Made by a program: the position numbers and the translations under genes. From Eubacteriales bacterium (GTDB taxonomy: Bacteria > Bacillota > Clostridia > Oscillospirales > SIG627), in NCBI GenBank assembly GCA_045543495.1, contig JAZQMO010000066.1:3007-67006 (forward strand): a stretch of DNA of 64,000 nt, in the 5' to 3' direction. Below, piece by piece: positions 9,211 through 48,714 of the stretch. The first letter of the stretch is position 1, and each line of letters starts with the position of its first letter. The notes beneath the pieces are model-generated. The model saw only the letters and a program-made list of their open reading frames with translations, made no database searches and was not told where the DNA came from.

Positions 9211-10840
9211 TGGATTTCTCCGTTTTTCGTTGAAATTTGTTTTGAATTTTTTGGGGCATCAGAACCATCAAAAGCTTAAAATTGATGGCAAGATAGATTC
9301 CTGCGGCCACCACACCCGAAAGCCCAAGGTTGATGATCTGCACCCATTTGCGGGGATCCTCTGCGGGGAGGATACTTTTCATCCCGTACAGAACGCCGCA
9401 GAAGACGGCGCTTGAAAGAAGAAACCTCGGCAGAGTCTTTGCCGTCTCTCGGTAATCAAAGCCCATTTTCACCTTCAGGTATACCATGGTAATGGTGTTG
9501 GAAACCAAAAAGCCCGACAGGGTAGCGGTAATGGCACCGTAATGGGCAGGCCATCCAAGAGCGGAAAACAGGTGCATCAAGGGAATATCCAGCAAAAGAT
9601 TGGTTCCCAGTCCGAGAAAAACGGAGCTGTAGATCAATTTTGGCTTGTGCAGACTTTGCAGCAGGGAATTGGTCACCATATAAAGGCAGTCAAACACCGT
9701 CACCAAAATGCTGAAGCGAACGATCTGCGGCCCGAAGCTGTTGGGACTGTAAAATACGTTCCAGACCCCTGTGCTCATCATACTGATAAACAGAGCCATG
9801 GGGGTGATAATGAACAGAATGATCTTCAGGCTTTTGTTGAAATTGCCGTTGACCGCATCCATATTCTTTTCCGTATAGTCCTTTACCATATTGGGAATCA
9901 GACTTACAATGAGCCCCGTGGAAACGGAGGTGATAATGGTGTTGAACTTCACCCCCCAGGTGGTAAATACACTGCTGATAAATTCCGTATCCTCCGCAGA
10001 AAAGCCAAGCTTTGGCAGGGTGCGGATCATCAGGATCATATCCGTTGACGTGTAAAGGGTGTTGGCAAGGGTGATCACAATAAAGGGGATGGAATAAGAT
10101 ATGATCTTCTTTATGATCTCCCGATCCTCCGCCTTGCTTGTTTTGCCCTTTCGGTCAAGTCCGATCTCGGCTTTGTTTTTGCGGCAGATCCGATCCAGAT
10201 AAAAATAGGCAACAAGCCCGCCGAGCCCCGCCGCCAAAACGGAAATGCCAACGGCATATTTGGTGGGAAGGCCAAGAAGAGTGGACAGAACAAAGCTTCC
10301 TATGAGAATGACCCCAATGCGGAAAAGCTGCTCTATGACCTGACTGAGAGAGGGCTCCTTGATATAGCGGTGCCCCTGCAAATACCCTCTTTTGACGCTG
10401 AGAAAGGGAATGATAATGAGGGCAAAGGAAATGAGGCGAAGCACAAAGGCCACATCTGTGGTGGAATTTCCGCCCTCCAGATCTCCCACGATCAACCTTG
10501 CGATCTGCGGCGCAAAGAGAAAGCAGATCAAAAAGGAAACAAGGGAAAAGGTGAGAATGATGCGGGTAGCAATGCGATACATTCCGGCCTTTTTATCCAT
10601 TTGCCCCAGCGTGTGATATTCGCTGGTCAATTTGCTGATGGCAAGGGGGATCCCCGCCGTGGAAATACTCAAAAACACATTGTAAATGTTGTAGGCATAG
10701 CCGTAAAGGGTGCCGCCCTCCTCCCCGATGATCTGATAAAAGGGGATGACATATAAGACCCCCATTACCTTGGAGAGGAAGATGCACAGGGTGGCGATGA
10801 ACGCCCCCTCTAAAAAGCCTGATTTTTTCAGTTTGCTCAT
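9197..10840 (-). CDS. MOP-superfamily flippase of the MurJ/YtgP/SpoVB type
   Basis: 547-aa polytopic protein. Its N-terminus ...GAFIATLCIFLSKVMGVLYVIPFYQIIGEEGGTLYGYAYNIYNVFLSISTAGIPLAISKLTSEY parallels the B. subtilis YtgP/SpoVB pattern. It has an ATGA overlap with asnB and a 14-nt overlap with ylqF. Confidence 0.7.
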   Translation of the reverse strand: MSKLKKSGFLEGAFIATLCIFLSKVMGVLYVIPFYQIIGEEGGTLYGYAYNIYNVFLSISTAGIPLAISKLTSEYHTLGQMDKKAGMYRIATRIILTFSLVSFLICFLFAPQIARLIVGDLEGGNSTTDVAFVLRLISFALIIIPFLSVKRGYLQGHRYIKEPSLSQVIEQLFRIGVILIGSFVLSTLLGLPTKYAVGISVLAAGLGGLVAYFYLDRICRKNKAEIGLDRKGKTSKAEDREIIKKIISYSIPFIVITLANTLYTSTDMILMIRTLPKLGFSAEDTEFISSVFTTWGVKFNTIITSVSTGLIVSLIPNMVKDYTEKNMDAVNGNFNKSLKIILFIITPMALFISMMSTGVWNVFYSPNSFGPQIVRFSILVTVFDCLYMVTNSLLQSLHKPKLIYSSVFLGLGTNLLLDIPLMHLFSALGWPAHYGAITATLSGFLVSNTITMVYLKVKMGFDYRETAKTLPRFLLSSAVFCGVLYGMKSILPAEDPRKWVQIINLGLSGVVAAGIYLAINFKLLMVLMPQKIQNKFQRKTEKSNEKA

Positions 10841-12678
10841 GTTTTATCCGATCCGAAATATACTTGATACCAAATCAAGAAAATATAAATGTTGTAGATC
10901 TTTCTGCCGTTGTTTTTCTTTCCTGCATAGTGATCCTCCAAAAGATCAAGGATCACCTTCTGATCAAAGAATCTCGGCACCTCTTCTCCTTTGAAGGCCT
11001 TTTTTACCGCCTCGTAGTATTTCTCCTCACGGATCCACTTGGAGAAGGGAACGGGGAAGCCAAGCTTTCGCCTCTTAGACCATTCCTCGGGCATTTCCTC
11101 GTCTGCCACACTGCGGAAGATCTCCTTGGTCTTCTTTTTGCGGATCATAAAGGATGTGGGGATCCTTCTTGCCAGATCCCAAACCTCCTTGTCCAAAAAG
11201 GGAACCCGCAGCTCAATGGAATTGGCCATGGTCATTTTGTCTGCCTTCAAAAGAATATCCTGAGGAAGCCAAAAGTGCATATCCAAATACATTTTTTTGG
11301 TCACGTCGTCCTCGTTTTTCACCTTCTCATAATAGGGTGCGAGCACATCCGTTGTGGTCATATCGTCCTTTAAGCGATCCGCCAGAATTTCGTTTGCTTC
11401 CTCCTCGTTCATCACCTGTGCGTGGCCGATGTAGCGCTGACAGAAGGGAAGGGCGTATTTAATAAGGGTATTCTTCCCCGGAAAATGCGGCAGCTTTTTT
11501 GCCACGGCGGCAATGGGCTTTTTGATGAAGGTTGGCAGGGACATATATAATTTGACAGGCAAGGGCTCCAAATATTCATTGTATCCGCCGAACATTTCAT
11601 CGCTTCCCTCACCGGAAAGCACTACCTTCACCTCTTTTCTTGCCAGCTCCGACAAGAATAACAGGGGAACGGTGGAGAGGTTGGCGTGGGGCTCATCGGT
11701 ATGATACTGCACCTTGGGCAGACTCTCAAAAAAGTCCTCCTTGGAAATGTATCGGCTGAAATTCTTGACCCCCATAAGATCGGAAAAATCCTTGGCCATT
11801 TTGGTTTCGTCAAAGCCCGAAACCTCAAAGCCCACGGAAAAGGTCTTGTCAGGCTTTGCCACGCTGACCACATAAGAGGAGTCCACTCCTCCCGAAAGGT
11901 AAGAGCCCACCTCCACATCCGAGGTGATCTGATGATAGCGGATGGAATCTGCCAGCGTTTCCTTGATCCTTTGGCGGTATTCCCCGTAAGGCCTCTTTTC
12001 CTTTTTGTATTCCACGGTAAAATAAGGCTTGACCGTCAGATTCCCCTTGGAATAGTGGAAATAATGGCCGGGCTTTAGTTTGTATACGTTCTTGAAAAAG
12101 GTCTCTTCAAAGACAGAATACTGGAAGATCAGGTACATTTTCAGCGCCTTGTCACAGATCTCCTTTTTCATTCTCGGGTGGGGGAGCATTCCCTTGATCT
12201 CCGAGGCGTACATAAAGTCTTTTTCCGTTTTGTAGTAATAAAAGGGCTTGATGCCGAATTGATCACGGCAGCCCACCGCCTCGCCCGTTTTGCGATCGTA
12301 GATCACAAAGGCAAACATTCCCCGAAGTCTGGGAAACAGCTCCACACCGTATTCCTCGTATCCGTGGATCAAAACCTCGGTATCGGCCTGAGTGGAGAAG
12401 GTATGCCCCTTCTTAAGAAGCTCCTCCCGAAGCTGTCTGTAATTGTAGATCTCACCGTTGAAGGTGATCACCAAAGAGGAGTCCTCATTGTATATGGGCT
12501 GACTGCCTCCCTCCAGATCAATGATGGAGAGTCTGCGAAAGCCCATGGCGATCCTGTCATCACAAAAATATCCGTCGGAGTCAGGGCCTCTGTGCACAAT
12601 GGCATCGGCCATATCCTTTACAATCTCTTCTTTTCTTTCTATCTCTTCTTCTCCGAAGAAGCCTACAAATCCGCACAT
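10837..12678 (-). CDS. asnB: asparagine synthase (glutamine-hydrolysing), AsnB family amidotransferase
   Basis: N-terminal MCGF nucleophile Cys, the Ntn-amidotransferase half, and the SGGVDSS PP-loop. Confidence 0.85.
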   Translation of the reverse strand: MCGFVGFFGEEEIERKEEIVKDMADAIVHRGPDSDGYFCDDRIAMGFRRLSIIDLEGGSQPIYNEDSSLVITFNGEIYNYRQLREELLKKGHTFSTQADTEVLIHGYEEYGVELFPRLRGMFAFVIYDRKTGEAVGCRDQFGIKPFYYYKTEKDFMYASEIKGMLPHPRMKKEICDKALKMYLIFQYSVFEETFFKNVYKLKPGHYFHYSKGNLTVKPYFTVEYKKEKRPYGEYRQRIKETLADSIRYHQITSDVEVGSYLSGGVDSSYVVSVAKPDKTFSVGFEVSGFDETKMAKDFSDLMGVKNFSRYISKEDFFESLPKVQYHTDEPHANLSTVPLLFLSELARKEVKVVLSGEGSDEMFGGYNEYLEPLPVKLYMSLPTFIKKPIAAVAKKLPHFPGKNTLIKYALPFCQRYIGHAQVMNEEEANEILADRLKDDMTTTDVLAPYYEKVKNEDDVTKKMYLDMHFWLPQDILLKADKMTMANSIELRVPFLDKEVWDLARRIPTSFMIRKKKTKEIFRSVADEEMPEEWSKRRKLGFPVPFSKWIREEKYYEAVKKAFKGEEVPRFFDQKVILDLLEDHYAGKKNNGRKIYNIYIFLIWYQVYFGSDKT

Positions 12679-13896
12679 TTATTCTGCCTTCCAATATCCG
12701 TTTTTATATTCTTTGTAATACCTGAAATGCTTTTTGATCAGGTAAAGCTGTCGTTTGAAATTGCGGTCCTTGCGGTAGCGAACGGGGCTGACCCGTCCCT
12801 TCCACAGGCGAAGTGCCTCCTTCTTGAAGTCCTCGTTTTTTACATATTTTTTCACCACGCCCCGTGGCACGAAGGATAAAAGCTGCTTCTTGTTCAGGAA
12901 AACATATTCGCTTTCCTTTTCCTCCAAAAGATCCTCAATAAGCACCTGCACCAGATTCTTTCCGAGAGCGGCTACATAATAGCTGCTGCGGCCTTGCCGT
13001 GCATTGATCTCCAACACCTTGAAGCGCCCGTCCCGAACATCAAATTTCAAATCAAATTCTGCCCAGCCGCGGTATCCGATGCCCTCTAAAAATTCCTTCA
13101 TTTGGCCTTCGATCTGCTTCGGATCTCCGTTTTGATAATAGCCGTTGATCATTACCGCCGCATTGCCGACCATATTGCGGCTGTGCTCCTGCAGGCCGAT
13201 CTGCGCCAAGGAAAGCACCTTCACCTTCCCGTTTCTGTCGCAATAGGCTACGGCGTCATAAAGCAGGGAGTCATCTCCGGGAATGTAGTCCTGAAGGATC
13301 AGAATATCGTCGTACCCGCCTTTTCGGATCCGATGGATAATATCGTTTAATTCCTCCCGACTTTTCACCTTGTAGATCTTGTTTTTCCCTTCAAAGGAAA
13401 GGTGGTTGTATAAAATCACATTGCTGGGCTTCACAATGAGGGGAAAATTCGCCTCCTCCTCAAATGCTTCCTGCTTTTTGCAATCAAAATAATAGGTCTT
13501 GGGAAGAGAAAGACAGGAGCTTTCGTATGTCTTGTAAAAATCCTCCTTCATCATCAGGGAGGAGAGAATTTCAAGGCTTGGGTAATTGAAATAAAAGCCC
13601 GCTTCTTTCAGCTTGTCAGCGTTTTTCACCATCAGAGCGGCGTAGCTTTCGTTGGAGCTGATCAAAAGGATCTTTTTGCCCGAAAAGCGCTTTTTGAAGT
13701 CCGTCAATGCCTTCAAAAAGCCCTCCTCCTCCCAAATGGAAGAATCGTAAAATAAATTGAGAATGTCGGAATACTGCGTATAGGGGAGAGGGGACTTTGC
13801 CAAAACATACGCCTTTTTGCCGTATGCCTCGTGATAACAGCGAGCCATATAATAGGCGTTGGCATCACTGCCGATAATGAGAACGACATAGTCCAT
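12679..13896 (-). CDS. ATP-grasp carboxylate-amine ligase, D-aspartate-ligase-like
   Basis: IIGSDANAYYMARCYHEAYGKK, ILQDYIPGDDS and LEINARQGRSSYY resemble, from memory, the peptidoglycan D-Asp ligase (Aslfm) family. Its stop TAA abuts the asnB ATG (TAAATG). Confidence 0.55.
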   Translation of the reverse strand: MDYVVLIIGSDANAYYMARCYHEAYGKKAYVLAKSPLPYTQYSDILNLFYDSSIWEEEGFLKALTDFKKRFSGKKILLISSNESYAALMVKNADKLKEAGFYFNYPSLEILSSLMMKEDFYKTYESSCLSLPKTYYFDCKKQEAFEEEANFPLIVKPSNVILYNHLSFEGKNKIYKVKSREELNDIIHRIRKGGYDDILILQDYIPGDDSLLYDAVAYCDRNGKVKVLSLAQIGLQEHSRNMVGNAAVMINGYYQNGDPKQIEGQMKEFLEGIGYRGWAEFDLKFDVRDGRFKVLEINARQGRSSYYVAALGKNLVQVLIEDLLEEKESEYVFLNKKQLLSFVPRGVVKKYVKNEDFKKEALRLWKGRVSPVRYRKDRNFKRQLYLIKKHFRYYKEYKNGYWKAE

Positions 13897-13916
13897 TTCA
13901 AATCCTCCGTTTTAAC

Positions 13917-15074
13917 TTACTTTGTGTTGGTGTAGACCCTCGGCACTCTCGGGCCGATGCCCGTTAACAGGCGATAAGCGTTGACCCCGCTTTTTCTTGC
14001 GGCTTGGGAAACGGAAATGTTCTTTCCGAACAGCTCTGCCACGTCTCCCACAGAAACGCTCCCGTCCACCAAAATCGTGATCATATCCATGCAGGCAGAG
14101 CCCACAATGGGGTATCTTTTTTGTCCGATAAAAACCTCTCCCAAGCTGCTGTCAACACCATCGTGATAACCGATGGAAAGGGTGGCGATCCTTTGGTCCT
14201 CAGGGGCGACCCCTTGGGCTCCGTAGCCGATCCGCTCTCCCTTTTTCACTTCTCTTATGCTGATCACCTCACCAAAGAGGGAAAAGGCGGTTTCAAGCTT
14301 CAGATCGTTTTCCAGAATACAGGGAGAAATGCCAAGCCGTTTCAAGGTCAAAAGCCGCTTCAGGCGGCGCAGTCCCTTGGGCTCGGGAATGCTTTGGGAA
14401 AAACCGTAAAGAAGGATCCCGTGTCGGGTTCCCGTTTCAAACTCCAATTTTTCGTGATGCACCAGCGTAATGGAGCGATTGATATGCACAATGGGAATTT
14501 TCTTCAAATCAATGCCTTCTGTCAGATGACGGAAGGTGGCAAGGGATTTGTCGTAATAGGGGTCAAGGATCCCGCCGGTTGCAAAATGGGTAAAGATCCC
14601 TTCCAGAATAAGATTTTCCTTTCCCGAAAGAAGGGAAACGGCCTCTTCGACCTCCTCCTTCCTCTTGATCCCCAATCGGTTCATTCCGCAGTCCAGCTTT
14701 AAGTGCACCTTCAGGGGAGAGGGGAGGGGGGTACCAGCCAATCGGGCGGCATCCGCAAGGGAATCCACCGTCAGGGTCAGATCGTTTTTCAGGGCAATCT
14801 CAACAACCTCGGGACGGCGAATGTAAGGCTCCAGAATCAAAACGGGAATACTCCTGTTTTCTTCTCTTACCGCCAAGGCCTCCTCGGGGGTTGCCACCGC
14901 AAGATAATTGATCCCGCCTCGGATCAGAGCGTGAATGGCCCCAAATCCGTGACCGTATGCACCGGCCTTTACCACGCCGATGTGATAACTGTAATCTTTG
15001 TATTTTTCTGTGATCTCTCGGGCGTTTTTCTCTAAAACTTCCGTGTCGATTTCGGCCCAGGTTTTCCGATACAT
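13917..15074 (-). CDS. alr: alanine racemase family PLP enzyme (copy 1)
   Basis: VVKAGAYGHG (PLP Lys), GILLYGF, SIGYHDG and CMDMITILVD motifs. ATG 15074 lies after AAGGGGTGA. Confidence 0.8.
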   Translation of the reverse strand: MYRKTWAEIDTEVLEKNAREITEKYKDYSYHIGVVKAGAYGHGFGAIHALIRGGINYLAVATPEEALAVREENRSIPVLILEPYIRRPEVVEIALKNDLTLTVDSLADAARLAGTPLPSPLKVHLKLDCGMNRLGIKRKEEVEEAVSLLSGKENLILEGIFTHFATGGILDPYYDKSLATFRHLTEGIDLKKIPIVHINRSITLVHHEKLEFETGTRHGILLYGFSQSIPEPKGLRRLKRLLTLKRLGISPCILENDLKLETAFSLFGEVISIREVKKGERIGYGAQGVAPEDQRIATLSIGYHDGVDSSLGEVFIGQKRYPIVGSACMDMITILVDGSVSVGDVAELFGKNISVSQAARKSGVNAYRLLTGIGPRVPRVYTNTK

Positions 15075-15097
15075 ATAAATCACCCCTTATATCATCC

Positions 15098-41936: not shown

Positions 41937-41977
41937 AAAAAAATGCGGAAAGAGAAAAGTCCTTCCGCATTTTTTTC
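41937..41977 (+). terminator. rho-independent terminator
   Basis: aaaaaaatgcggaa ... ttccgcattttttt. Confidence 0.55.
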
Positions 41978-42116
41978 TTTTCCTGTAATTCAAAATCAAA
42001 AAATCAAAGAATTTGCAGAACCACAAGCTGTTTTTGTTGACGAAACAAGGGGGATACAATATAATAAAAGGGTGTTGAAATCGGTTTTTCCCAAAAAAAT
42101 AGGCAGAGGTGCAGAA

Positions 42117-42959
42117 ATGAAAAAACTCGGGTATTACAACGGATTTTTCGGCGAGCTGGAGGAAATGAGCGTCCCCATGAACGATAGGGTCTGCTATTTC
42201 GGCGACGGCGTTTACGATGCCACCTACAGCCGCAATTACAAGATCTTTGCTCTGGAGGAGCACATTGACCGCCTGTATAACAGCGCCGCTCTTTTGAAGA
42301 TCGAGATCGGTCAGACCAAGGAAGAAATGAAAGCCATTTTGCAGGAAATGGTCAACAAAATGGATACGGATGCCAATTTCGTCTATTGGCAGGTGACCCG
42401 TGGCACGGGAGTGAGAAATCATGTTTTCACCACCGACGGCTCAAAGGCCAATCTTTGGATCACCATCGTTCCCAAGCCTATTGTGGATACCTATAAAAAG
42501 ATTCGGCTCATCACTATGGAGGACACCCGTTTTCTCCATTGCAATATTAAGACCTTGAACCTGATCCCCGCCGTAATGGCAAGTCAAAAGGCCAAGGAGG
42601 CAGGGTGTGATGAGACCGTTCTTCATAGAGGAGATAGGGTGACCGAGTGTGCCCACAGCAATGTGCATATCATCAAGGACGGTGTTTTTGTAACCGCTCC
42701 CACCGACCACCTGATCCTCCCCGGCATTGCCCGCGCTCACCTGATCGCAGCCTGCAAAAGGCTCGGCATCGGGGTGGATGAGACCCCCTTCACCATCAAG
42801 GAAATGATGGAGGCCGATGAGGTCATCGTCTCCTCCTCAGGCTCCCTTTGCCTTGCGGCAGAAGAAATCGACGGCCAAAGAGTGGGAGGAAAGGCTCCCG
42901 AAATTTTGAAACTGCTTCAGGATGAGGTGCTCCGTGAATTTACGGAGGCCACCAATTAA
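42117..42959 (+). CDS. dat: class IV aminotransferase, D-amino-acid transaminase-like
   Basis: ATG 42117 (MKKLGYYNG). ...DRVCYFGDGVYD...HIDRLYNSA...YWQVTRG...CNIKTLNLIPAVMA...LPGIAR... is fold-type IV/Dat-like. Confidence 0.75.
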   Translation: MKKLGYYNGFFGELEEMSVPMNDRVCYFGDGVYDATYSRNYKIFALEEHIDRLYNSAALLKIEIGQTKEEMKAILQEMVNKMDTDANFVYWQVTRGTGVRNHVFTTDGSKANLWITIVPKPIVDTYKKIRLITMEDTRFLHCNIKTLNLIPAVMASQKAKEAGCDETVLHRGDRVTECAHSNVHIIKDGVFVTAPTDHLILPGIARAHLIAACKRLGIGVDETPFTIKEMMEADEVIVSSSGSLCLAAEEIDGQRVGGKAPEILKLLQDEVLREFTEATN

Positions 42960-42968
42960 GGAGAGAGT

Positions 42969-44036
42969 ATGACACAAAAGGAAATGACCGCCCTCAATCT
43001 GGGCCAAAGCTTGGATGATCTCGCCAATTTAGACCCCCGAGGCTACGGTGTGTGTAAAATTCTGTATCAGGCCTCCCGAAGCCTTGCAGGCGGCCCCACC
43101 TGTATGAACGGAGCCAAAAAGCTATGTGAGACCCTGAAGGCAGGAGATTTCGTTTATATTATGACGGGCTTTGTTCTGCGCCCCTTCAAAAAAGCGGAAA
43201 TGGATGGCATCGTCAGCTCTGTGCTTCTTTGCAGAGCGCTGGTGAAGGCCTTTGACGTAAAGCCCATCATCGTTTGCCCCGTGGATAATGAAAAGGCCGT
43301 CAGAGCCTTGGCGGGCTGTGTGGGCCTGCATTTGCAGGAGGATTTCACCGCTCTGGCCGAAATTCCCGTTTCCATGGGAATGTTTCTGTTCACCAAGGAT
43401 GTCGCCGAGGCCGAAGGGGAGGCAGACCGCCTCTTAAAGCTCGCACCGCCGAAGGCCGTTATCAGTATTGAGTGCCCCGGTGCCAATGAAAAGGGCGTTT
43501 ATCACAATGCCACGGGTCTGGATGTAACCGAGCTTGAGGCCAAGCAGGATATTCTGTTTGAAAAGGCGCAGAAAATGGGTGTTTTGGATCTTGCCATCGG
43601 CGATCTCGGCAATGAGATCGGAATGGGCGCCATCTCCGATACCTTGAAAGACTATATCCCTTATGCCGCCGAGGGCAGGTGTCGCTGCGGCTGCGGAGGG
43701 GGAATTGCCGCCCGCACCAAGGCGAATAACCTCATTACCGCCACCGTGTCCGATTGGGGCTGCTATGCGCTCATTGCCGCCCTTGCCTTTCTGATGGAAA
43801 ACATCGATATTATGCACGATGCCGAATTGGAAAAGAGAAGTATGATCACCGCCTGTGAAAACGGTATGATCGATATGTACGGCTGGCTCATTCCCGCCAT
43901 TGACGGCTTCGGCACCGAGATCAATCTGCCCATGGTGTCCCTTATGAGAGAAATGGTGAAAAGCGCCCTTTCCCTGAAGGAAACCTGTAAGACCTGGTTT
44001 GAAAAGGTAAATGAATTGGGATTTTTTGAACCGTAA
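42969..44036 (+). CDS. DUF4392 protein (homologous to the C-terminal half of D-glutamate cyclase)
   Basis: ...DPRGYG...VYIMTGF...EMDG...ISIECPG...AIGDLGNEIGMG... pattern that I associate with DUF4392. Confidence 0.6.
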   Translation: MTQKEMTALNLGQSLDDLANLDPRGYGVCKILYQASRSLAGGPTCMNGAKKLCETLKAGDFVYIMTGFVLRPFKKAEMDGIVSSVLLCRALVKAFDVKPIIVCPVDNEKAVRALAGCVGLHLQEDFTALAEIPVSMGMFLFTKDVAEAEGEADRLLKLAPPKAVISIECPGANEKGVYHNATGLDVTELEAKQDILFEKAQKMGVLDLAIGDLGNEIGMGAISDTLKDYIPYAAEGRCRCGCGGGIAARTKANNLITATVSDWGCYALIAALAFLMENIDIMHDAELEKRSMITACENGMIDMYGWLIPAIDGFGTEINLPMVSLMREMVKSALSLKETCKTWFEKVNELGFFEP

Positions 44037-44071
44037 GATCCCGCCTTTTTCTGTGGAAAAGAGAGGAGAGT

Positions 44072-44791
44072 ATGGAAAACATTCGTTTTCTCCCTTGCGG
44101 AGAGGGAGCCTTTACCGTAGCCTTTGATCAAAGGATCTCCGAGACGGTCAATCAAAAGATCCGCTATCTTGCCGCCGAGCTGGAAAAAGCAAAGCTTGCA
44201 GGAGTGGGGGAGACGGTACCGACCTTTTGCAGTCTTACGGTCTTTTTTGATCCCCTTGTGATTTCAAAGCAAAGTTTAAAAAATCAAATCCTCTCCCTGA
44301 TGGGAGCCTATGAGGAGGGCATCGCTTCTGAGAAGCGGGTCTTCCTCGTTCCCGTTTGCTATGAGGGGGAGTTTGCCCCCGATTTAGAGGAGGTATGCCG
44401 CCATACGGGCCTTTCCCGGGAGGAGGTCATACGCCGCCACACCGCCGAGGATTATTTAATTTATATGCTGGGATTTTTGCCCGGCTTTCCTTATTTGGGC
44501 GGAATGGATCCTGCCTTGGAATGCCCGAGGCTTGATACCCCTCGCACAAGGATCCCCGCAGGTGCCGTGGGGATCGGGGGAAAGCAAACGGGCATCTATC
44601 CCTTAGCCTCTCCCGGCGGCTGGCGCCTCATCGGGCAGACCCCCGTCAAGGTCTATGCCCCCGAGCGGGAGGAGCCCATTTTATATCGGGCGGGAGATGC
44701 CATTCGCTTCTATCCCATTTCCGTGGAAGAATACCAAAGGATCGAGGCAGAGGGCGGCCTTGCCATTGAGGTAAGGAGGGAAGAGAAATGA
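44072..44791 (+). CDS. pxpB: 5-oxoprolinase subunit B (PxpB/KipI family)
   Basis: ...FLPCGEGAFTVAF...YLIYMLGFLPGFPYLGGMD...IPAGAVGIGGKQTGIYP... Confidence 0.8.
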   Translation: MENIRFLPCGEGAFTVAFDQRISETVNQKIRYLAAELEKAKLAGVGETVPTFCSLTVFFDPLVISKQSLKNQILSLMGAYEEGIASEKRVFLVPVCYEGEFAPDLEEVCRHTGLSREEVIRRHTAEDYLIYMLGFLPGFPYLGGMDPALECPRLDTPRTRIPAGAVGIGGKQTGIYPLASPGGWRLIGQTPVKVYAPEREEPILYRAGDAIRFYPISVEEYQRIEAEGGLAIEVRREEK

Positions 44792-45735
44792 AAATGACGA
44801 TCCTGTCTCCCGGCCCCCTGACCACCGTTCAGGATCAGGGGCGCTTCGGCTATATGAATACGGGCTTTTCCCCGGGCGGCGCCATGGATCCGGACGCCAT
44901 GAAAAGAGCCAATCTTTTGGTGGGAAATCGGCTCGGAGAGGGTGTTTTGGAAATGACCCTGATGGGAATTACCGCCGAGTTTGACTGTGATACTGTCATC
45001 GGTATTACAGGGGCGGATATGTGCCCCACCGTAAACGGCGAGCCTGTGAATATGAATACTACCGTCTATGTGAAAAAAGGCTCCCGTCTGACTCTTGGCG
45101 CCGCCAAATCGGGAATGAGAGCCTACCTTGCCGTTTCAGGCGGCTTTGCCCTTGAGCCTGTGATGGGAAGCCTTTCCACCAATTTGAAATGTGCTCTTGG
45201 GGGCTTTCAGGGAAGAAAGCTTGCTGCGGGGGATGAAATTTGCCTGAAGCGGGAGACCGCCCCCTCCCAAATCTCGCCTCGCTTTATTGCCGCTCCAAAC
45301 CTCGGAGGAAGAGACATTGCGCTTCACGTGATCCTTGGCCCGCAGGATGATTATTTTACCTCTGAAGGAATTGACAGCTTTTGCCAAAAGGCTTATACTG
45401 TATCTGTCAACTCCGACCGTATGGGCATTCGTTTGGAGGGAGAAAGGATCGAGAATAAAAACGGGGTGGATATTATTTCCGACGGCATTGTTACAGGCTC
45501 GGTTCAGATCCCGCCTGCAGGCGTTCCCATTATTATGATGGCCGACCGCCAAACCACGGGAGGTTATGCCAAAATTGCCACGGTGATCCGCCGTGACCTG
45601 TCCCTTCTTGCTCAGGCAAGACCGGGGGATCGGGTTCGCTTTTATCCCATTACAGAGGAAATGGCTCTTTTGACCCGCAAGGAGGAGTCATTGAAGGAAA
45701 GAAGGCTGACCGAGAAGTATCAGCCCTTGTTTTGA
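44788..45735 (+). CDS. pxpC: 5-oxoprolinase subunit C (PxpC/KipA family)
   Basis: ...GPLTTVQDQGRFGY...GFSPGGAMD...SDRMGIRLEG...MMADRQTTGGYAKIA.... 4-nt overlap with pxpB. Confidence 0.8.
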   Translation: MKMTILSPGPLTTVQDQGRFGYMNTGFSPGGAMDPDAMKRANLLVGNRLGEGVLEMTLMGITAEFDCDTVIGITGADMCPTVNGEPVNMNTTVYVKKGSRLTLGAAKSGMRAYLAVSGGFALEPVMGSLSTNLKCALGGFQGRKLAAGDEICLKRETAPSQISPRFIAAPNLGGRDIALHVILGPQDDYFTSEGIDSFCQKAYTVSVNSDRMGIRLEGERIENKNGVDIISDGIVTGSVQIPPAGVPIIMMADRQTTGGYAKIATVIRRDLSLLAQARPGDRVRFYPITEEMALLTRKEESLKERRLTEKYQPLF

Positions 45736-45745
45736 AGGAGAATTT

Positions 45746-46531
45746 ATGGATGTTTCCAAAATGAGCCCGAAGGCGGTGCGTGATCTGATCCGTCAAGGGA
45801 AGATCACCTCCCAGACCTCGGGAATGTGTGACGGCTTTGCTCAGGCCAATCTTTTGATCCTGCCCCGTGAGCAGGCCTATGACTTTTTGCTTTTCACGCA
45901 GCGCAATCCCAAATCCTGCCCCATTCTGGAGGTGGGGGATGTGGGAAGCCGTTTGGTGAAGAAAATGGCAGACTGCGCCGATATTGCCACCGATCTTCCC
46001 AAGTACCGACTTTGGGAAAACGGCGTTTTGACAGGGGAATATACGGATATCTCCTCCCTTTGGAGAGAGGATTTTGTGTATTTTCTCATTGGCTGTTCCT
46101 TCTCCTTTGAAGGGGAATTGTTGGCGGCCGATGTGCCTGTCCGTCAAATTGAAGAGGGGAAAAACGTACCCATGTACCTGACCAATATCCCCTGCGAGGA
46201 GGCGGGTATTTTCCACGGTAATTTGGTGGTCAGTATGAGACCGATGCCCGCAAGGGATGCCATCCGTGCCATCAGCATCACCTCCACTATGCCCCGTGTC
46301 CACGGTGCTCCCATTCACATCGGTGACCCCTCGCAGATCGGCATTGCAGACCTTGCAAAGCCTGATTTCGGGGATCGTGTTACGGTGAAGGAGGGAGAGA
46401 TCCCCGTGTTTTGGTGCTGCGGTGTGACCCCGCAATCCGTGGTGATGAGCGCCAAGCCTCCCATTGCCATCTCTCACGCACCGGGACATATGTTTATTAC
46501 CGATGTGAAAAATACTTTGTTAAAGGATTGA
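45746..46531 (+). CDS. DUF1445 putative hydro-lyase (YcsI / D-glutamate cyclase N-half family)
   Basis: ...VRDLIRQGKITSQTSGMCDGFAQANLLILP...FLLFTQRNPKSCPILEV...HGAPIHIGDP... Confidence 0.7.
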   Translation: MDVSKMSPKAVRDLIRQGKITSQTSGMCDGFAQANLLILPREQAYDFLLFTQRNPKSCPILEVGDVGSRLVKKMADCADIATDLPKYRLWENGVLTGEYTDISSLWREDFVYFLIGCSFSFEGELLAADVPVRQIEEGKNVPMYLTNIPCEEAGIFHGNLVVSMRPMPARDAIRAISITSTMPRVHGAPIHIGDPSQIGIADLAKPDFGDRVTVKEGEIPVFWCCGVTPQSVVMSAKPPIAISHAPGHMFITDVKNTLLKD

Positions 46532-46535
46532 ACGT

Positions 46536-47321
46536 ATGTATTTTGTAGATTTGAACAGCGACCTTGGGGAAAGCTTCGGTGCCTACCGCATCGGAATGGA
46601 TGAAAAGATCCTTCCCTTGGTCTCCTCGGCCAATGTCGCTTGCGGCTTTCACGCAGGAGACCCCAATGTGATGCAAAAGACCGCCCGCCTTTGTGCCGAG
46701 CACGGCGCATCTCTCGGTGCTCATCCCGGCTTTCCCGATCTTCAGGGCTTCGGTAGGCGAAATCTTTCCGTTTCCCCCGAGGAAGTGAGGTGTATGATCC
46801 TCTATCAGATCGGCGCCCTGGATGCCTTCTGCAAGGCCTCGGGAATTCGGATGCAGCACGTAAAGCCCCACGGCGCTCTGTATAATATGGCTGCCAAGGA
46901 TCCTGCATTGGCCGAGGCCATCTGCCGTGGGATTTATGAATATGACCCGAGCCTGATCCTTCTTGGTCTTGCAGGCAGTGAAATGCTCCGTCAGGCCAAA
47001 AAGATCGGCCTTCCCGCCGCCTGCGAGGTCTTTGCTGACCGCGCTTATGAGGACGATGGCTCCTTGGTTTCAAGATCCAAGCCCGGTGCTATGATCCACG
47101 ATGAAACCGAAGCCGTTTCCCGCGTGGTGGGAATGATCAAAAACGGTACCGTCAAGTCCATCAACGGCAAAACCATCGAGCTTTGTCCCGATTCCGTCTG
47201 CGTTCACGGAGACAGTGAAAAGGCGCTTCTTTTCGTTCAAAAAATTCGGGATGCCCTTGTTTCGGAAGGCATTGAGATCGCTCCTCTGAAAACCGTTTTG
47301 CAGAAAAGAGGCGTTCAGTGA
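46536..47321 (+). CDS. pxpA: 5-oxoprolinase subunit A (PxpA, LamB/YcsF family)
   Basis: VDLNSDLGESFG...SSANVACGFHAGDPNVM...HVKPHGALYN... Confidence 0.85.
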   Translation: MYFVDLNSDLGESFGAYRIGMDEKILPLVSSANVACGFHAGDPNVMQKTARLCAEHGASLGAHPGFPDLQGFGRRNLSVSPEEVRCMILYQIGALDAFCKASGIRMQHVKPHGALYNMAAKDPALAEAICRGIYEYDPSLILLGLAGSEMLRQAKKIGLPAACEVFADRAYEDDGSLVSRSKPGAMIHDETEAVSRVVGMIKNGTVKSINGKTIELCPDSVCVHGDSEKALLFVQKIRDALVSEGIEIAPLKTVLQKRGVQ

Positions 47322-48445
47322 GCCGCTTTCTCAGAACCTATGCCCGAGTGGATCTCGGGGCCGTCAGGGCCAATTTCAAGGCATTGAGATCCTGCCTTCC
47401 CGAGGGGGTCAAGGCGCTTGCCACCGTGAAGGCCGATGCCTACGGTCACGGCAGCATCCAAGTTTCCCTCGCTCTGGAAGAGGAAGCGGATTATTTTGCC
47501 GTAGCCTGTCTCGAGGAGGCTCTTACTCTTCGGAAAGGCGGTATCCGTAAGCCCATCCTGATCCTTTCCTACACCCACCCGTCTCTCTTTTGTGAATTGA
47601 TCGCAAATGATATCACCGCAACGGTCTACCGTACCGAGGATGCGCTCCTGTTATCCGAGGAGGCAGTGAAAATGGGGAAAAAAGCCCGTGTTCATCTTGC
47701 GGTCGATACAGGAATGGGGCGTATCGGCTTTTCTCCCGATGAAGAGGGGGCGAATGCCGTTGCAGAAATTTTTAAGCTTTCGGGCCTTGAAGCGGAGGGC
47801 ATTTTCAGCCACCTTGCCCGAGCCGATGAAAGAGACAAAAGCACCGCCCTGTTGCAGAGAGAACGCTTTGATTTCTTTTTGCATCTTTTGGAGGAAAAGG
47901 GCTGCCGCTTTTCCATTCGCCACCTATGCAACAGCGCCGGCACGATGGAATTTCCCGAAAAATATGATATGTGCCGCTTCGGCATTTCTCTTTACGGCTT
48001 GTACCCCTCCCAAGAAATGGATCGCAGCAGGGTAAAGCTCACCCCCGCTATGGAGGTGATCAGCCACGTGATCCACGTAAAGACCGTGCCTGCAGGCACT
48101 CCCATCGGCTATGGACACACCTATATTGCTCCTGCCGAGCGGCGTATTGCCACCGTCAGCATCGGCTATGCCGATGGCTTCAACCGCTCCCTTTCGGGAA
48201 AAGGCTTTGTTTTGATCCGAGGGAAAAGAGCCGCAGTGGTGGGAAGAGTCTGTATGGATCAGATCATGGTGGATGTCACCGAGATCCCCGATGCCGCCGT
48301 GGGAGATGAGGCCGTCATTCTCGGAAAAAGCGGGGAAGAGGAGATCTGTGCAGAAGACCTCGGAGAGATGGCAGGCAGCTTCCATTACGAGGTGGTCTGC
48401 AATTTTATGCCCCGTGTCACAAGAGTCTACCTTGAGGACAAGTGA
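47318..48445 (+). CDS. alr: alanine racemase (copy 2)
   Basis: GTG 47318 overlaps the pxpA stop and follows AAGAGG. Motifs: ATVKADAYGHG, RFGISLYGLYPS, VSIGYADGF and VCMDQIMVDV. Confidence 0.85.
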   Translation: MSRFLRTYARVDLGAVRANFKALRSCLPEGVKALATVKADAYGHGSIQVSLALEEEADYFAVACLEEALTLRKGGIRKPILILSYTHPSLFCELIANDITATVYRTEDALLLSEEAVKMGKKARVHLAVDTGMGRIGFSPDEEGANAVAEIFKLSGLEAEGIFSHLARADERDKSTALLQRERFDFFLHLLEEKGCRFSIRHLCNSAGTMEFPEKYDMCRFGISLYGLYPSQEMDRSRVKLTPAMEVISHVIHVKTVPAGTPIGYGHTYIAPAERRIATVSIGYADGFNRSLSGKGFVLIRGKRAAVVGRVCMDQIMVDVTEIPDAAVGDEAVILGKSGEEEICAEDLGEMAGSFHYEVVCNFMPRVTRVYLEDK

Positions 48446-48474: not shown

Positions 48475-48503
48475 TTGACAAGCACGGCGAATTTTGTTAT
48501 ACT
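48475..48503 (+). promoter_or_regulatory. sigma-A promoter of the tRNA pair
   Basis: TTGACA, 17 nt, then TATACT preceded by TGt (extended -10). Confidence 0.55.
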
Positions 48504-48529
48504 ACTTGGGCACCGAAAAGTGCCCATCT

Positions 48530-48605
48530 GCGGATTTAGCTCATTTGGTAGAGCGCGACCTTGCCAAGGTCGAGGTGGCGGGTTCGAGCCCCGTAATCCG
48601 CTCCA
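48530..48605 (+). tRNA. tRNA-Gly (anticodon GCC), CCA encoded
   Basis: The hand-folded cloverleaf is gcggatt|ta|gctc-atttggta-gagc|g|cgacc-ttGCCaa-ggtcg|aggtg|gcggg-ttcgagc-cccgt|aatccgc|t|cca. Confidence 0.9.
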
Positions 48606-48608
48606 GTT

Positions 48609-48685
48609 GGCCTGGTAGTTCAGTTGGTTAGAACGCTAGCCTGTCACGCTAGAGGTCAGGGGTTCGAGCCCCCTTCAGGTCGCCA
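48609..48685 (+). tRNA. tRNA-Asp (anticodon GUC), CCA encoded
   Basis: The hand-folded cloverleaf is ggcctgg|ta|gttc-agttggtta-gaac|g|ctagc-ctGTCac-gctag|aggtc|agggg-ttcgagc-cccct|tcaggtc|g|cca. Confidence 0.9.
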
Positions 48686-48714
48686 AAGCCCTTGCTATCG
48701 CAGGGGCTTTTTTC
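48686..48714 (+). terminator. terminator after tRNA pair
   Basis: aagcccttgc tatc gcaggggctt followed by a T-run. Confidence 0.55.

Follow-up and report, generated by a model that had tools for sequence, protein, structure and literature searches.

A seven-gene operon in a gut bacterium of the order Oscillospirales (GTDB SIG627) raises the question of why the three subunits of an ATP-dependent 5-oxoprolinase, PxpABC, should be encoded together with two domain families known from the animal D-glutamate cyclase and with two enzymes of D-amino-acid metabolism. We analysed a window of 64,000 nucleotides (nt) from this genome (assembly GCA_045543495.1, contig JAZQMO010000066.1, positions 3,007 to 67,006), in which seven open reading frames on the + strand, at 42117-48445 of the window, encode in order a D-amino-acid transaminase (dat), DUF4392, PxpB, PxpC, DUF1445, PxpA and an alanine racemase (alr), as assigned with Pfam and NCBIfam. 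On family membership and gene order, the operon is a real, conserved variant of the PxpABC/YcsI operon, for which a role in D-glutamate and pyroglutamate (5-oxoproline) metabolism is plausible. We put at about even the chance that it is a conserved module handling both compounds and built from three separable units.

Gene content of the operon

The promoter and genes of the operon are the following.

42037-42065, + strand: sigma-70-type promoter, TTGACG-17-TATAAT, matching 11 of 12 consensus positions; one promoter ahead of all seven genes
42117-42959, + strand: dat, class IV pyridoxal-phosphate (PLP)-dependent D-amino-acid transaminase, 280 aa (PF01063, 1.4e-45)
42969-44036, + strand: DUF4392 / GLUCM-like_C, 355 aa (PF14336, 6.8e-84)
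44072-44791, + strand: pxpB, 5-oxoprolinase subunit, KipI-like (PF02682, 3.4e-77; TIGR00370 equivalog, 212.8 bits with a cut-off of 145.6)
44788-45735, + strand: pxpC, 5-oxoprolinase subunit, KipA-like (PF02626, 2.8e-96; TIGR00724, 306.7 bits with a cut-off of 230.2)
45746-46531, + strand: DUF1445 / YcsI-like 'putative hydro-lyase' (PF07286, 1.2e-69; NF003969, 413.7 bits with a cut-off of 324)
46536-47321, + strand: pxpA, 5-oxoprolinase subunit, LamB/YcsF (PF03746, 5.9e-106; NF003814, 382 bits with a cut-off of 226)
47318-48445, + strand: alr, alanine racemase (TIGR00492, 386.7 bits with a cut-off of 168; PF01168 and PF00842)

A first-pass annotation of this DNA had described the same seven genes with two overlaps of 4 nt, and both this layout and all seven of its family assignments hold. 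The overlaps fall at pxpB/pxpC and pxpA/alr, and the gaps across the rest of the operon (9, 35, 10 and 4 nt) span 4-35 nt; judging by this spacing, the seven genes would be carried on a single transcript. The upstream DUF2383 gene ends in a terminator-like hairpin with a T-run, read from the sequence at ~41945-41976, and the promoter lies 3′ of this hairpin. The ATG of dat at 42117 is in frame within a longer open reading frame from 41943; family matches start at this ATG, and a purine-rich stretch lies 5′ of it.

The LamB/YcsF, CT_C_D and CT_A_B subunit families of 5-oxoprolinase (PF03746, PF02682 and PF02626) are all present in the one operon. PxpA matched Escherichia coli YbgL (1xw8) at 1e-76; NF003814, which it passes, is a subfamily model, and against the nearest equivalog, NF003813, it scored 365 bits with a cut-off of 392. 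PxpC scored 261 bits against the equivalog NF045499, with a cut-off of 500. In the host assembly (1.9 Mb, 93% complete, 69 contigs), pxpA is a single match, accompanied by one glutamate racemase (MurI) passing TIGR00067, two class IV aminotransferases, two alr-like genes and one YggS-like protein.

PF07286 and PF14336 do not share one polypeptide: each has a gene of its own, the two being 1.7 kb apart and separated by pxpB and pxpC. The first-pass annotation had recognized them as the two domains of the animal D-glutamate cyclase, and the comparison confirmed this: a sea-urchin protein carries PF07286 and PF14336 on one chain, and the animal enzyme is described as a DUF1445-DUF4392 fusion (PMC5339696, PMC5132392). 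A search for longer proteins, as bacterial DUF4392 fusions would be, gave only the sea-urchin protein, which is weak evidence of their absence. Judged by its family matches, DUF1445 is a homologue of the N-terminal domain of the cyclase, and its predicted model (pLDDT 88) matched 2pif and 3db9 with TM scores of 0.88-0.92.

DUF4392 is a homologue of the C-terminal domain and is predicted to be a two-metal (Mn/Mg) enzyme. It matched Thermococcus TON_0340 at 1e-16, and in the alignment its residues E77, D79, E168, D212, E216 and D312 correspond to the TON_0340 ligands Glu59, Asp61, Glu115, Asp157, Glu161 and Asp246, the six acidic metal ligands given in PMC5132392. None of the six varies among 31 close relatives or among 9 diverse sequences with identities down to 26%, one of these being a sea-urchin D-glutamate cyclase. 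Furthermore, a Cys-x-Cys-Gly-Cys insertion (residues 238-242; window 43680-43694) occurs in all bacterial DUF4392 proteins examined and is missing from the aligned TON_0340 and sea-urchin sequences; it could form an extra metal site. Complex prediction with DUF4392, PxpA and DUF1445 gave a score of 0.02, which is uninformative in either direction.

Dat aligned over its full length with Bacillus sp. YM-1 D-amino-acid aminotransferase (DAAT; 1daa/3lqs, 3.5e-54), its best solved relative, and keeps Tyr31, Arg98, His100, Lys145, Glu177 and Leu201 of that enzyme. The catalytic lysine and the carboxylate trap of DAAT (Tyr31, Arg98, His100) are thereby conserved in the alignment, and the predicted site is compatible with a dicarboxylate. 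Against the D-amino-acid transaminase equivalog TIGR01121, Dat scored 237.6 bits, under the cut-off of 277.45; the next unrelated class IV model gave 139 bits. The racemase at the other end of the operon matched Clostridioides difficile Alr (4luy) at 1e-89, with the KADAYGHG and GYG stretches seen in the alignment.

Conservation across species and states of the genus locus

In 185,579 species genomes, a pattern scan located 506 loci encoding DUF4392 relatives; the best 80 of these were compared together with three from the same order (n = 83). These relatives bear Faecousia, Acutalibacteraceae and Oscillospiraceae names and come mostly from gut metagenome bins. DUF4392, DUF1445, pxpA, pxpB and pxpC occurred together in 60 of the 83 loci. 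The linkage to dat and alr, whose absence from other genomes would by the first-pass annotation's own account have refuted its interpretation, is conserved well beyond the host genome: dat lies immediately 5′ of DUF4392 in 59 of the 82 loci with sufficient flank, alr belongs to the cluster in 38 of 83 (many others end at contig boundaries), and a further 17 species-level genomes repeat the seven-gene order exactly, which is beyond chance. A metagenomic homologue with only 42% DUF4392 identity keeps the order dat-DUF4392-pxpB-pxpC-DUF1445-pxpA.

A second order, dat-DUF4392-DUF1445-pxpA-alr-pxpB-pxpC, with alr in mid-cluster, is typical of Clostridium and is carried by C. tyrobutyricum, C. neonatale, C. 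chromiireducens and C. acidisoli. Through every rearrangement, the adjacencies dat-DUF4392, DUF1445-pxpA and pxpB-pxpC are kept. The five-gene set appears without dat at 17 loci, and dat-DUF4392-DUF1445-alr appears without adjoining pxp genes at L086 and L067; at L086 and L064, pxpA is found on a separate contig. In six cluster-bearing genomes (the host and five of Clostridium or Intestinibacillus), pxpA is single-copy, the copy being that of the cluster, and those five Clostridium or Intestinibacillus genomes have a second alr outside it.

The first-pass annotation had noted no transporter or regulator, which is correct for this window but does not extend to relatives: at Clostridium-type loci, an AsnC/Lrp regulator lies just 5′ in 16 cases, a Na:alanine symporter is present in 5, and Liv-type ATP-binding cassette (ABC) transporter genes also occur. 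Moreover, genes for a biotin carboxyl carrier protein (BCCP) and biotin carboxylase follow pxpC directly at 8-9 of these loci, for example at L060:15838-16284 and L066:15955-17298. Together with pxpB and pxpC they would account for every domain of an enzyme resembling urea carboxylase, a composition that hints at a biotin-dependent lactam opener. PxpB and PxpC of the Clostridium type are only 36-43% identical to those of the window.

Closer to the host, orthologues of the operon alr (56-62% identity) were found in 11 of the 15 genus genomes searched, and in most genus members the orthologue is the sole alr match. In three genomes (G002, G007 and G015) it adjoins the same DUF2383 gene: in G002, alr by itself comes after DUF2383 and the same TTGACG-17-TATAAT promoter; in G007, alr comes directly after DUF2383; and in G015, DUF2383 and the same promoter are followed by dat-alr, a pair present also in G011. 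At the host locus, DUF2383 and this promoter precede dat, the five genes and alr. Three states (alr; dat-alr; dat-five genes-alr) therefore share one promoter in the genus, an arrangement new in this window.

Because its orthologues keep the locus and are the single alr match in most genus genomes, the operon alr is the conserved resident racemase of the genus, not a dedicated second copy. The first-pass description of a "second alanine racemase" is accordingly right in that the genome holds two alr-like genes, but misplaced for the operon copy; it is in Clostridium that the cluster alr is the extra one. A tree of 44 alr sequences did not resolve the operon alr from genus and operon-linked copies, all lying in one polytomy, and we therefore argue its descent from synteny. 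pxpA and DUF4392 were found in the same 2 of 20 genus genomes, the other 18 showing neither. In the genus, the five-gene set has just one other carrier (L005, G004:C78), in which dat through pxpA have no adjoining alr; the best alr match there is 41% identical and on a different contig.

The other alr-like gene of the host (13917-15083, - strand) is 32% identical to the operon alr, contains an insertion, scored 251.6 bits against TIGR00492 and has matches in only two other genus genomes among those searched. Directly downstream of it on the - strand are genes for an ATP-grasp protein (12679-13896) and for an amidotransferase of the asparagine-synthase-like type (10837-12678); the stretch 10837-15083 may be a cluster for ligating or amidating D-amino acids.

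At the 3′ end of the operon, tRNA-Gly(GCC) and tRNA-Asp(GTC) genes lie directly 3′ of alr, within 48475-48710, with a promoter-like site of their own (TTGACA-17-TATACT) and a strong terminator at 48685-48710. No terminator lies between alr and the tRNA genes, so operon transcripts may run on into the tRNAs.

DUF4392 also occurs in other company. It is followed by alr alone at L071:10001-12224, L094:10001-12215, L072:10001-12216 and L114:7001-9281; three of these four genomes gave no match to DUF1445 or pxpA, and at two of the four loci the pair comes directly after dnaG-sigA. In three distant cases (L102, L107/L108 and one Logan contig; 30-35% identity), DUF4392 adjoins Amdase/Asp-Glu-racemase-like genes accompanied by di- or tricarboxylate transporters; TctABC or TRAP transporters are among the other neighbours, as are class I fumarase-like genes. 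These Amdase-like neighbours prompted a test of DUF1445 for a two-cysteine Asp/Glu-racemase fold, which was rejected: Foldseek matched it only to members of its family (2pif, 3db9) and, weakly, to an NrpR-like structure (TM 0.39-0.45). At L100:5455-9500 the genes are a Na:dicarboxylate symporter, an M20 peptidase, DUF4392 and RidA, and at L104:2144-7569 a D-serine-dehydratase-like PLP enzyme, DUF1445, Nramp, DUF4392 and RidA; an Nramp neighbour is reminiscent of ycsG in Bacillus subtilis and suits an enzyme dependent on Mn. A homologue with 44% identity is found by itself behind a glycolytic gene row. The commonest neighbour is thus an enzyme making or using D-amino acids or a racemase-like protein, not always linked to glutamate.

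A proposed D-glutamate and 5-oxoproline module and its competitors

If the operon handles D-glutamate and 5-oxoproline, PxpABC would open 5-oxoproline to glutamate at the expense of ATP, and DUF1445 and DUF4392 would form the split bacterial version of the animal D-glutamate cyclase, a metal-dependent enzyme acting on D-glutamate as well as 5-oxo-D-proline. Dat would convert D-glutamate and pyruvate to 2-oxoglutarate and D-alanine, and Alr would turn D-alanine into L-alanine, the net effect being the delivery of D-glutamate and both pyroglutamate enantiomers to central metabolism. In the five-gene loci lacking dat, MurI could take D-glutamate. The gene identities, key residues, operon layout and conserved linkage are shown here, and we infer every substrate, which way flux runs and whether the halves of the cyclase act alone or with PxpABC. 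Consistent with this model, the units occur apart as it predicts, both as the cyclase pair with dat and alr in the absence of pxp genes and as five genes without dat; the AsnC/Lrp regulators and amino-acid transporters added to the clusters of relatives, and the restriction of pxpA and DUF4392 to the same two genus genomes, likewise count in its favour. So do the conserved residues of Dat and DUF4392, the fusion of the two cyclase domains in animals, the presence of MurI, which relieves Dat of making D-glutamate, and the differing lactam specificities of Pseudomonas putida PxpABC paralogues.

Several points weigh against this model. If cyclase and oxoprolinase both acted on one enantiomer, the result would be an ATP-wasting cycle, which leaves their coupling unexplained. 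No bacterial assay of any of the steps was found in the literature searched. Dat falls just below its equivalog cut-off, and TON_0340 is reported as a weak Mn-dependent phosphatase. A glutamate model does not account for the DUF4392-alr pairs that lack both DUF1445 and Pxp, and distant DUF4392 genes (30-42% identity) keep varied company, with Amdase/Asp-Glu-racemase-like genes, RidA or M20 peptidases as neighbours, so that the substrate of DUF4392 may not be D-glutamate. Finally, given that alr is resident under its usual promoter, the arrangement may partly reflect the locus and not function.

Three solutions to the coupling are possible: the cyclase pair may run backward, drawn by Dat; it may give PxpABC its D-specificity; or cyclase and oxoprolinase may serve different enantiomers. 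A stronger version, in which DUF1445 and DUF4392 are the access of PxpABC to the D-enantiomer, either as an ATP-driven 5-oxo-D-prolinase or as a cyclase-plus-oxoprolinase route carrying D-glutamate irreversibly into the L-pool, is in our view doubtful. The Corynebacterium glutamicum paper makes no mention of D-enantiomer specificity of PxpABC.

An alternative that we also consider unlikely is that the operon supplies and repairs the D-amino-acid pool of the cell wall, as constitutive housekeeping and not as catabolism. Alr would make D-alanine, Dat would use it with 2-oxoglutarate to form D-glutamate, and the five-gene set would recover glutamate that ring closure has turned into 5-oxo-L-proline or 5-oxo-D-proline. 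PxpABC was reportedly discovered as a damage-repair enzyme by Niehaus et al. in 2017, which suits this explanation, as do the identity of alr with the genus racemase, the use of one promoter for alr, dat-alr or seven genes, and the absence of a regulator or transporter from the window. It is countered by the presence of MurI, with which Dat is not required for D-glutamate synthesis, and by the 18 of 20 genus genomes with no DUF4392 or pxpA match, which make the five-gene set look dispensable; moreover, the Clostridium cluster, with an AsnC regulator, transporters and a second alr elsewhere in the genome, looks catabolic.

It is quite unlikely that the operon joins two independent functions under shared regulation. 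PxpABC would then be an ordinary 5-oxo-L-prolinase, DUF1445 and DUF4392 running forward would be an overflow valve turning surplus D-glutamate into inert 5-oxo-D-proline, and Dat and Alr would balance D-alanine and D-glutamate. The mammalian enzyme does work in the direction from D-glutamate to 5-oxo-D-proline (PMC5339696), PxpB and PxpA pass curated 5-oxoprolinase models, and the units can be found apart, with pxpA on another contig at L086 and L064. Against such independence stand the perfect co-occurrence of pxpA and DUF4392 in the genus and the DUF1445-pxpA adjacency in every arrangement seen, and a valve would be redundant beside a transaminase for the same substrate.

Very unlikely is a different substrate altogether, another lactam or a phosphorylated small molecule, with DUF4392 as a Mn-dependent phosphatase and the D-amino-acid enzymes processing the opened product: the split of Pseudomonas putida PxpABC paralogues between butyrolactam and 5-oxoproline, the weak phosphatase activity of TON_0340, the score of PxpC under its equivalog cut-off, the divergent pxpBC of the Clostridium type with BCCP and biotin carboxylase after them and the varied DUF4392 contexts would allow it, but both halves of a demonstrated D-glutamate cyclase, together with a DAAT whose dicarboxylate-compatible site is intact, point to glutamate, and PxpA is near the validated E. 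coli YbgL.

Known relatives and biological meaning

We found no paper describing a bacterial operon of this kind in the full-text literature naming DUF4392 or DUF1445. All three subunit families of PxpABC, as in E. coli ybgJKL and in the B. subtilis operon pxpA(ycsF)-ycsG-ycsI-kipI-kipA (PMC10448178), are present here, and in B. subtilis, where PF07286 was found, DUF1445 (YcsI) adjoins pxpA as it does in the window. Compared with the B. subtilis operon, ours adds DUF4392, dat and alr and has neither the Nramp gene nor the KipR regulator. It also differs from known PxpABC systems in that, within the host's genus, the enzyme occurs only inside the cluster. In P. putida, paralogues of the same three-subunit family act on butyrolactam (PP_2920-2) or on 5-oxoproline (PP_4575-7; bioRxiv 10.1101/2021.12.09.472016), and specificity for the ring substrate can thus shift; the paralogues are not reported there to have D-amino-acid enzymes or cyclase halves beside them. 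An ATP-independent 5-oxoprolinase of Alcaligenes is cited in a passage of PMC13274462.

The animal mitochondrial D-glutamate cyclase (DGLUCY / C14orf159 / 9030617O03Rik, EC 4.2.1.48) shares PF07286 and PF14336 with the operon and keeps the acidic ligands of the C-terminal domain, whereas the two domains are separate genes here and the animal (sea-urchin) protein is ~26% identical over the shared domain. TON_0340 (PDB 4dwz, 5gkx), a probable Mn-dependent phosphatase, has in common with the window DUF4392 the six acidic ligands and a GD-x-GNE-x-GMG stretch; only residues 163-335 align well, however, and the proteins differ in length (355 aa in the window, 268 aa in TON_0340). Archaea lack DUF1445 (PMC5132392). 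The DAAT of Bacillus sp. YM-1, which works with alanine racemase, shares its catalytic and substrate-carboxylate residues with Dat, and dat-alr pairs stand alone in two genus genomes; in YM-1, however, the pair serves D-glutamate synthesis, whereas here MurI is present and dat and alr bracket the oxoprolinase and cyclase genes.

By tying DUF1445 (YcsI) and DUF4392 to D-amino-acid enzymes and an oxoprolinase, the operon gives both families concrete candidate substrates. With alr, dat-alr and the full operon all occurring at one locus of the genus behind one promoter, the five genes stand out as a removable unit, and the cultured carriers C. tyrobutyricum, C. neonatale and C. acidisoli make the operon testable. 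The first-pass annotation had suggested the spore cortex as a source of substrate, for which we found no support. D-Glutamate and pyroglutamate abound at sites of cell-wall turnover such as the gut, where D-pyroglutamate too is plentiful, and humans excrete 5-oxo-D-proline (PMC5339696). If DUF1445 and DUF4392 do give PxpABC access to the D-enantiomer, the operon would represent a new bacterial way to consume cell-wall D-glutamate and host-derived D-pyroglutamate; a bacterial sink for these compounds in the gut, if true, would bear on the exchange of D-amino acids between host and microbes.

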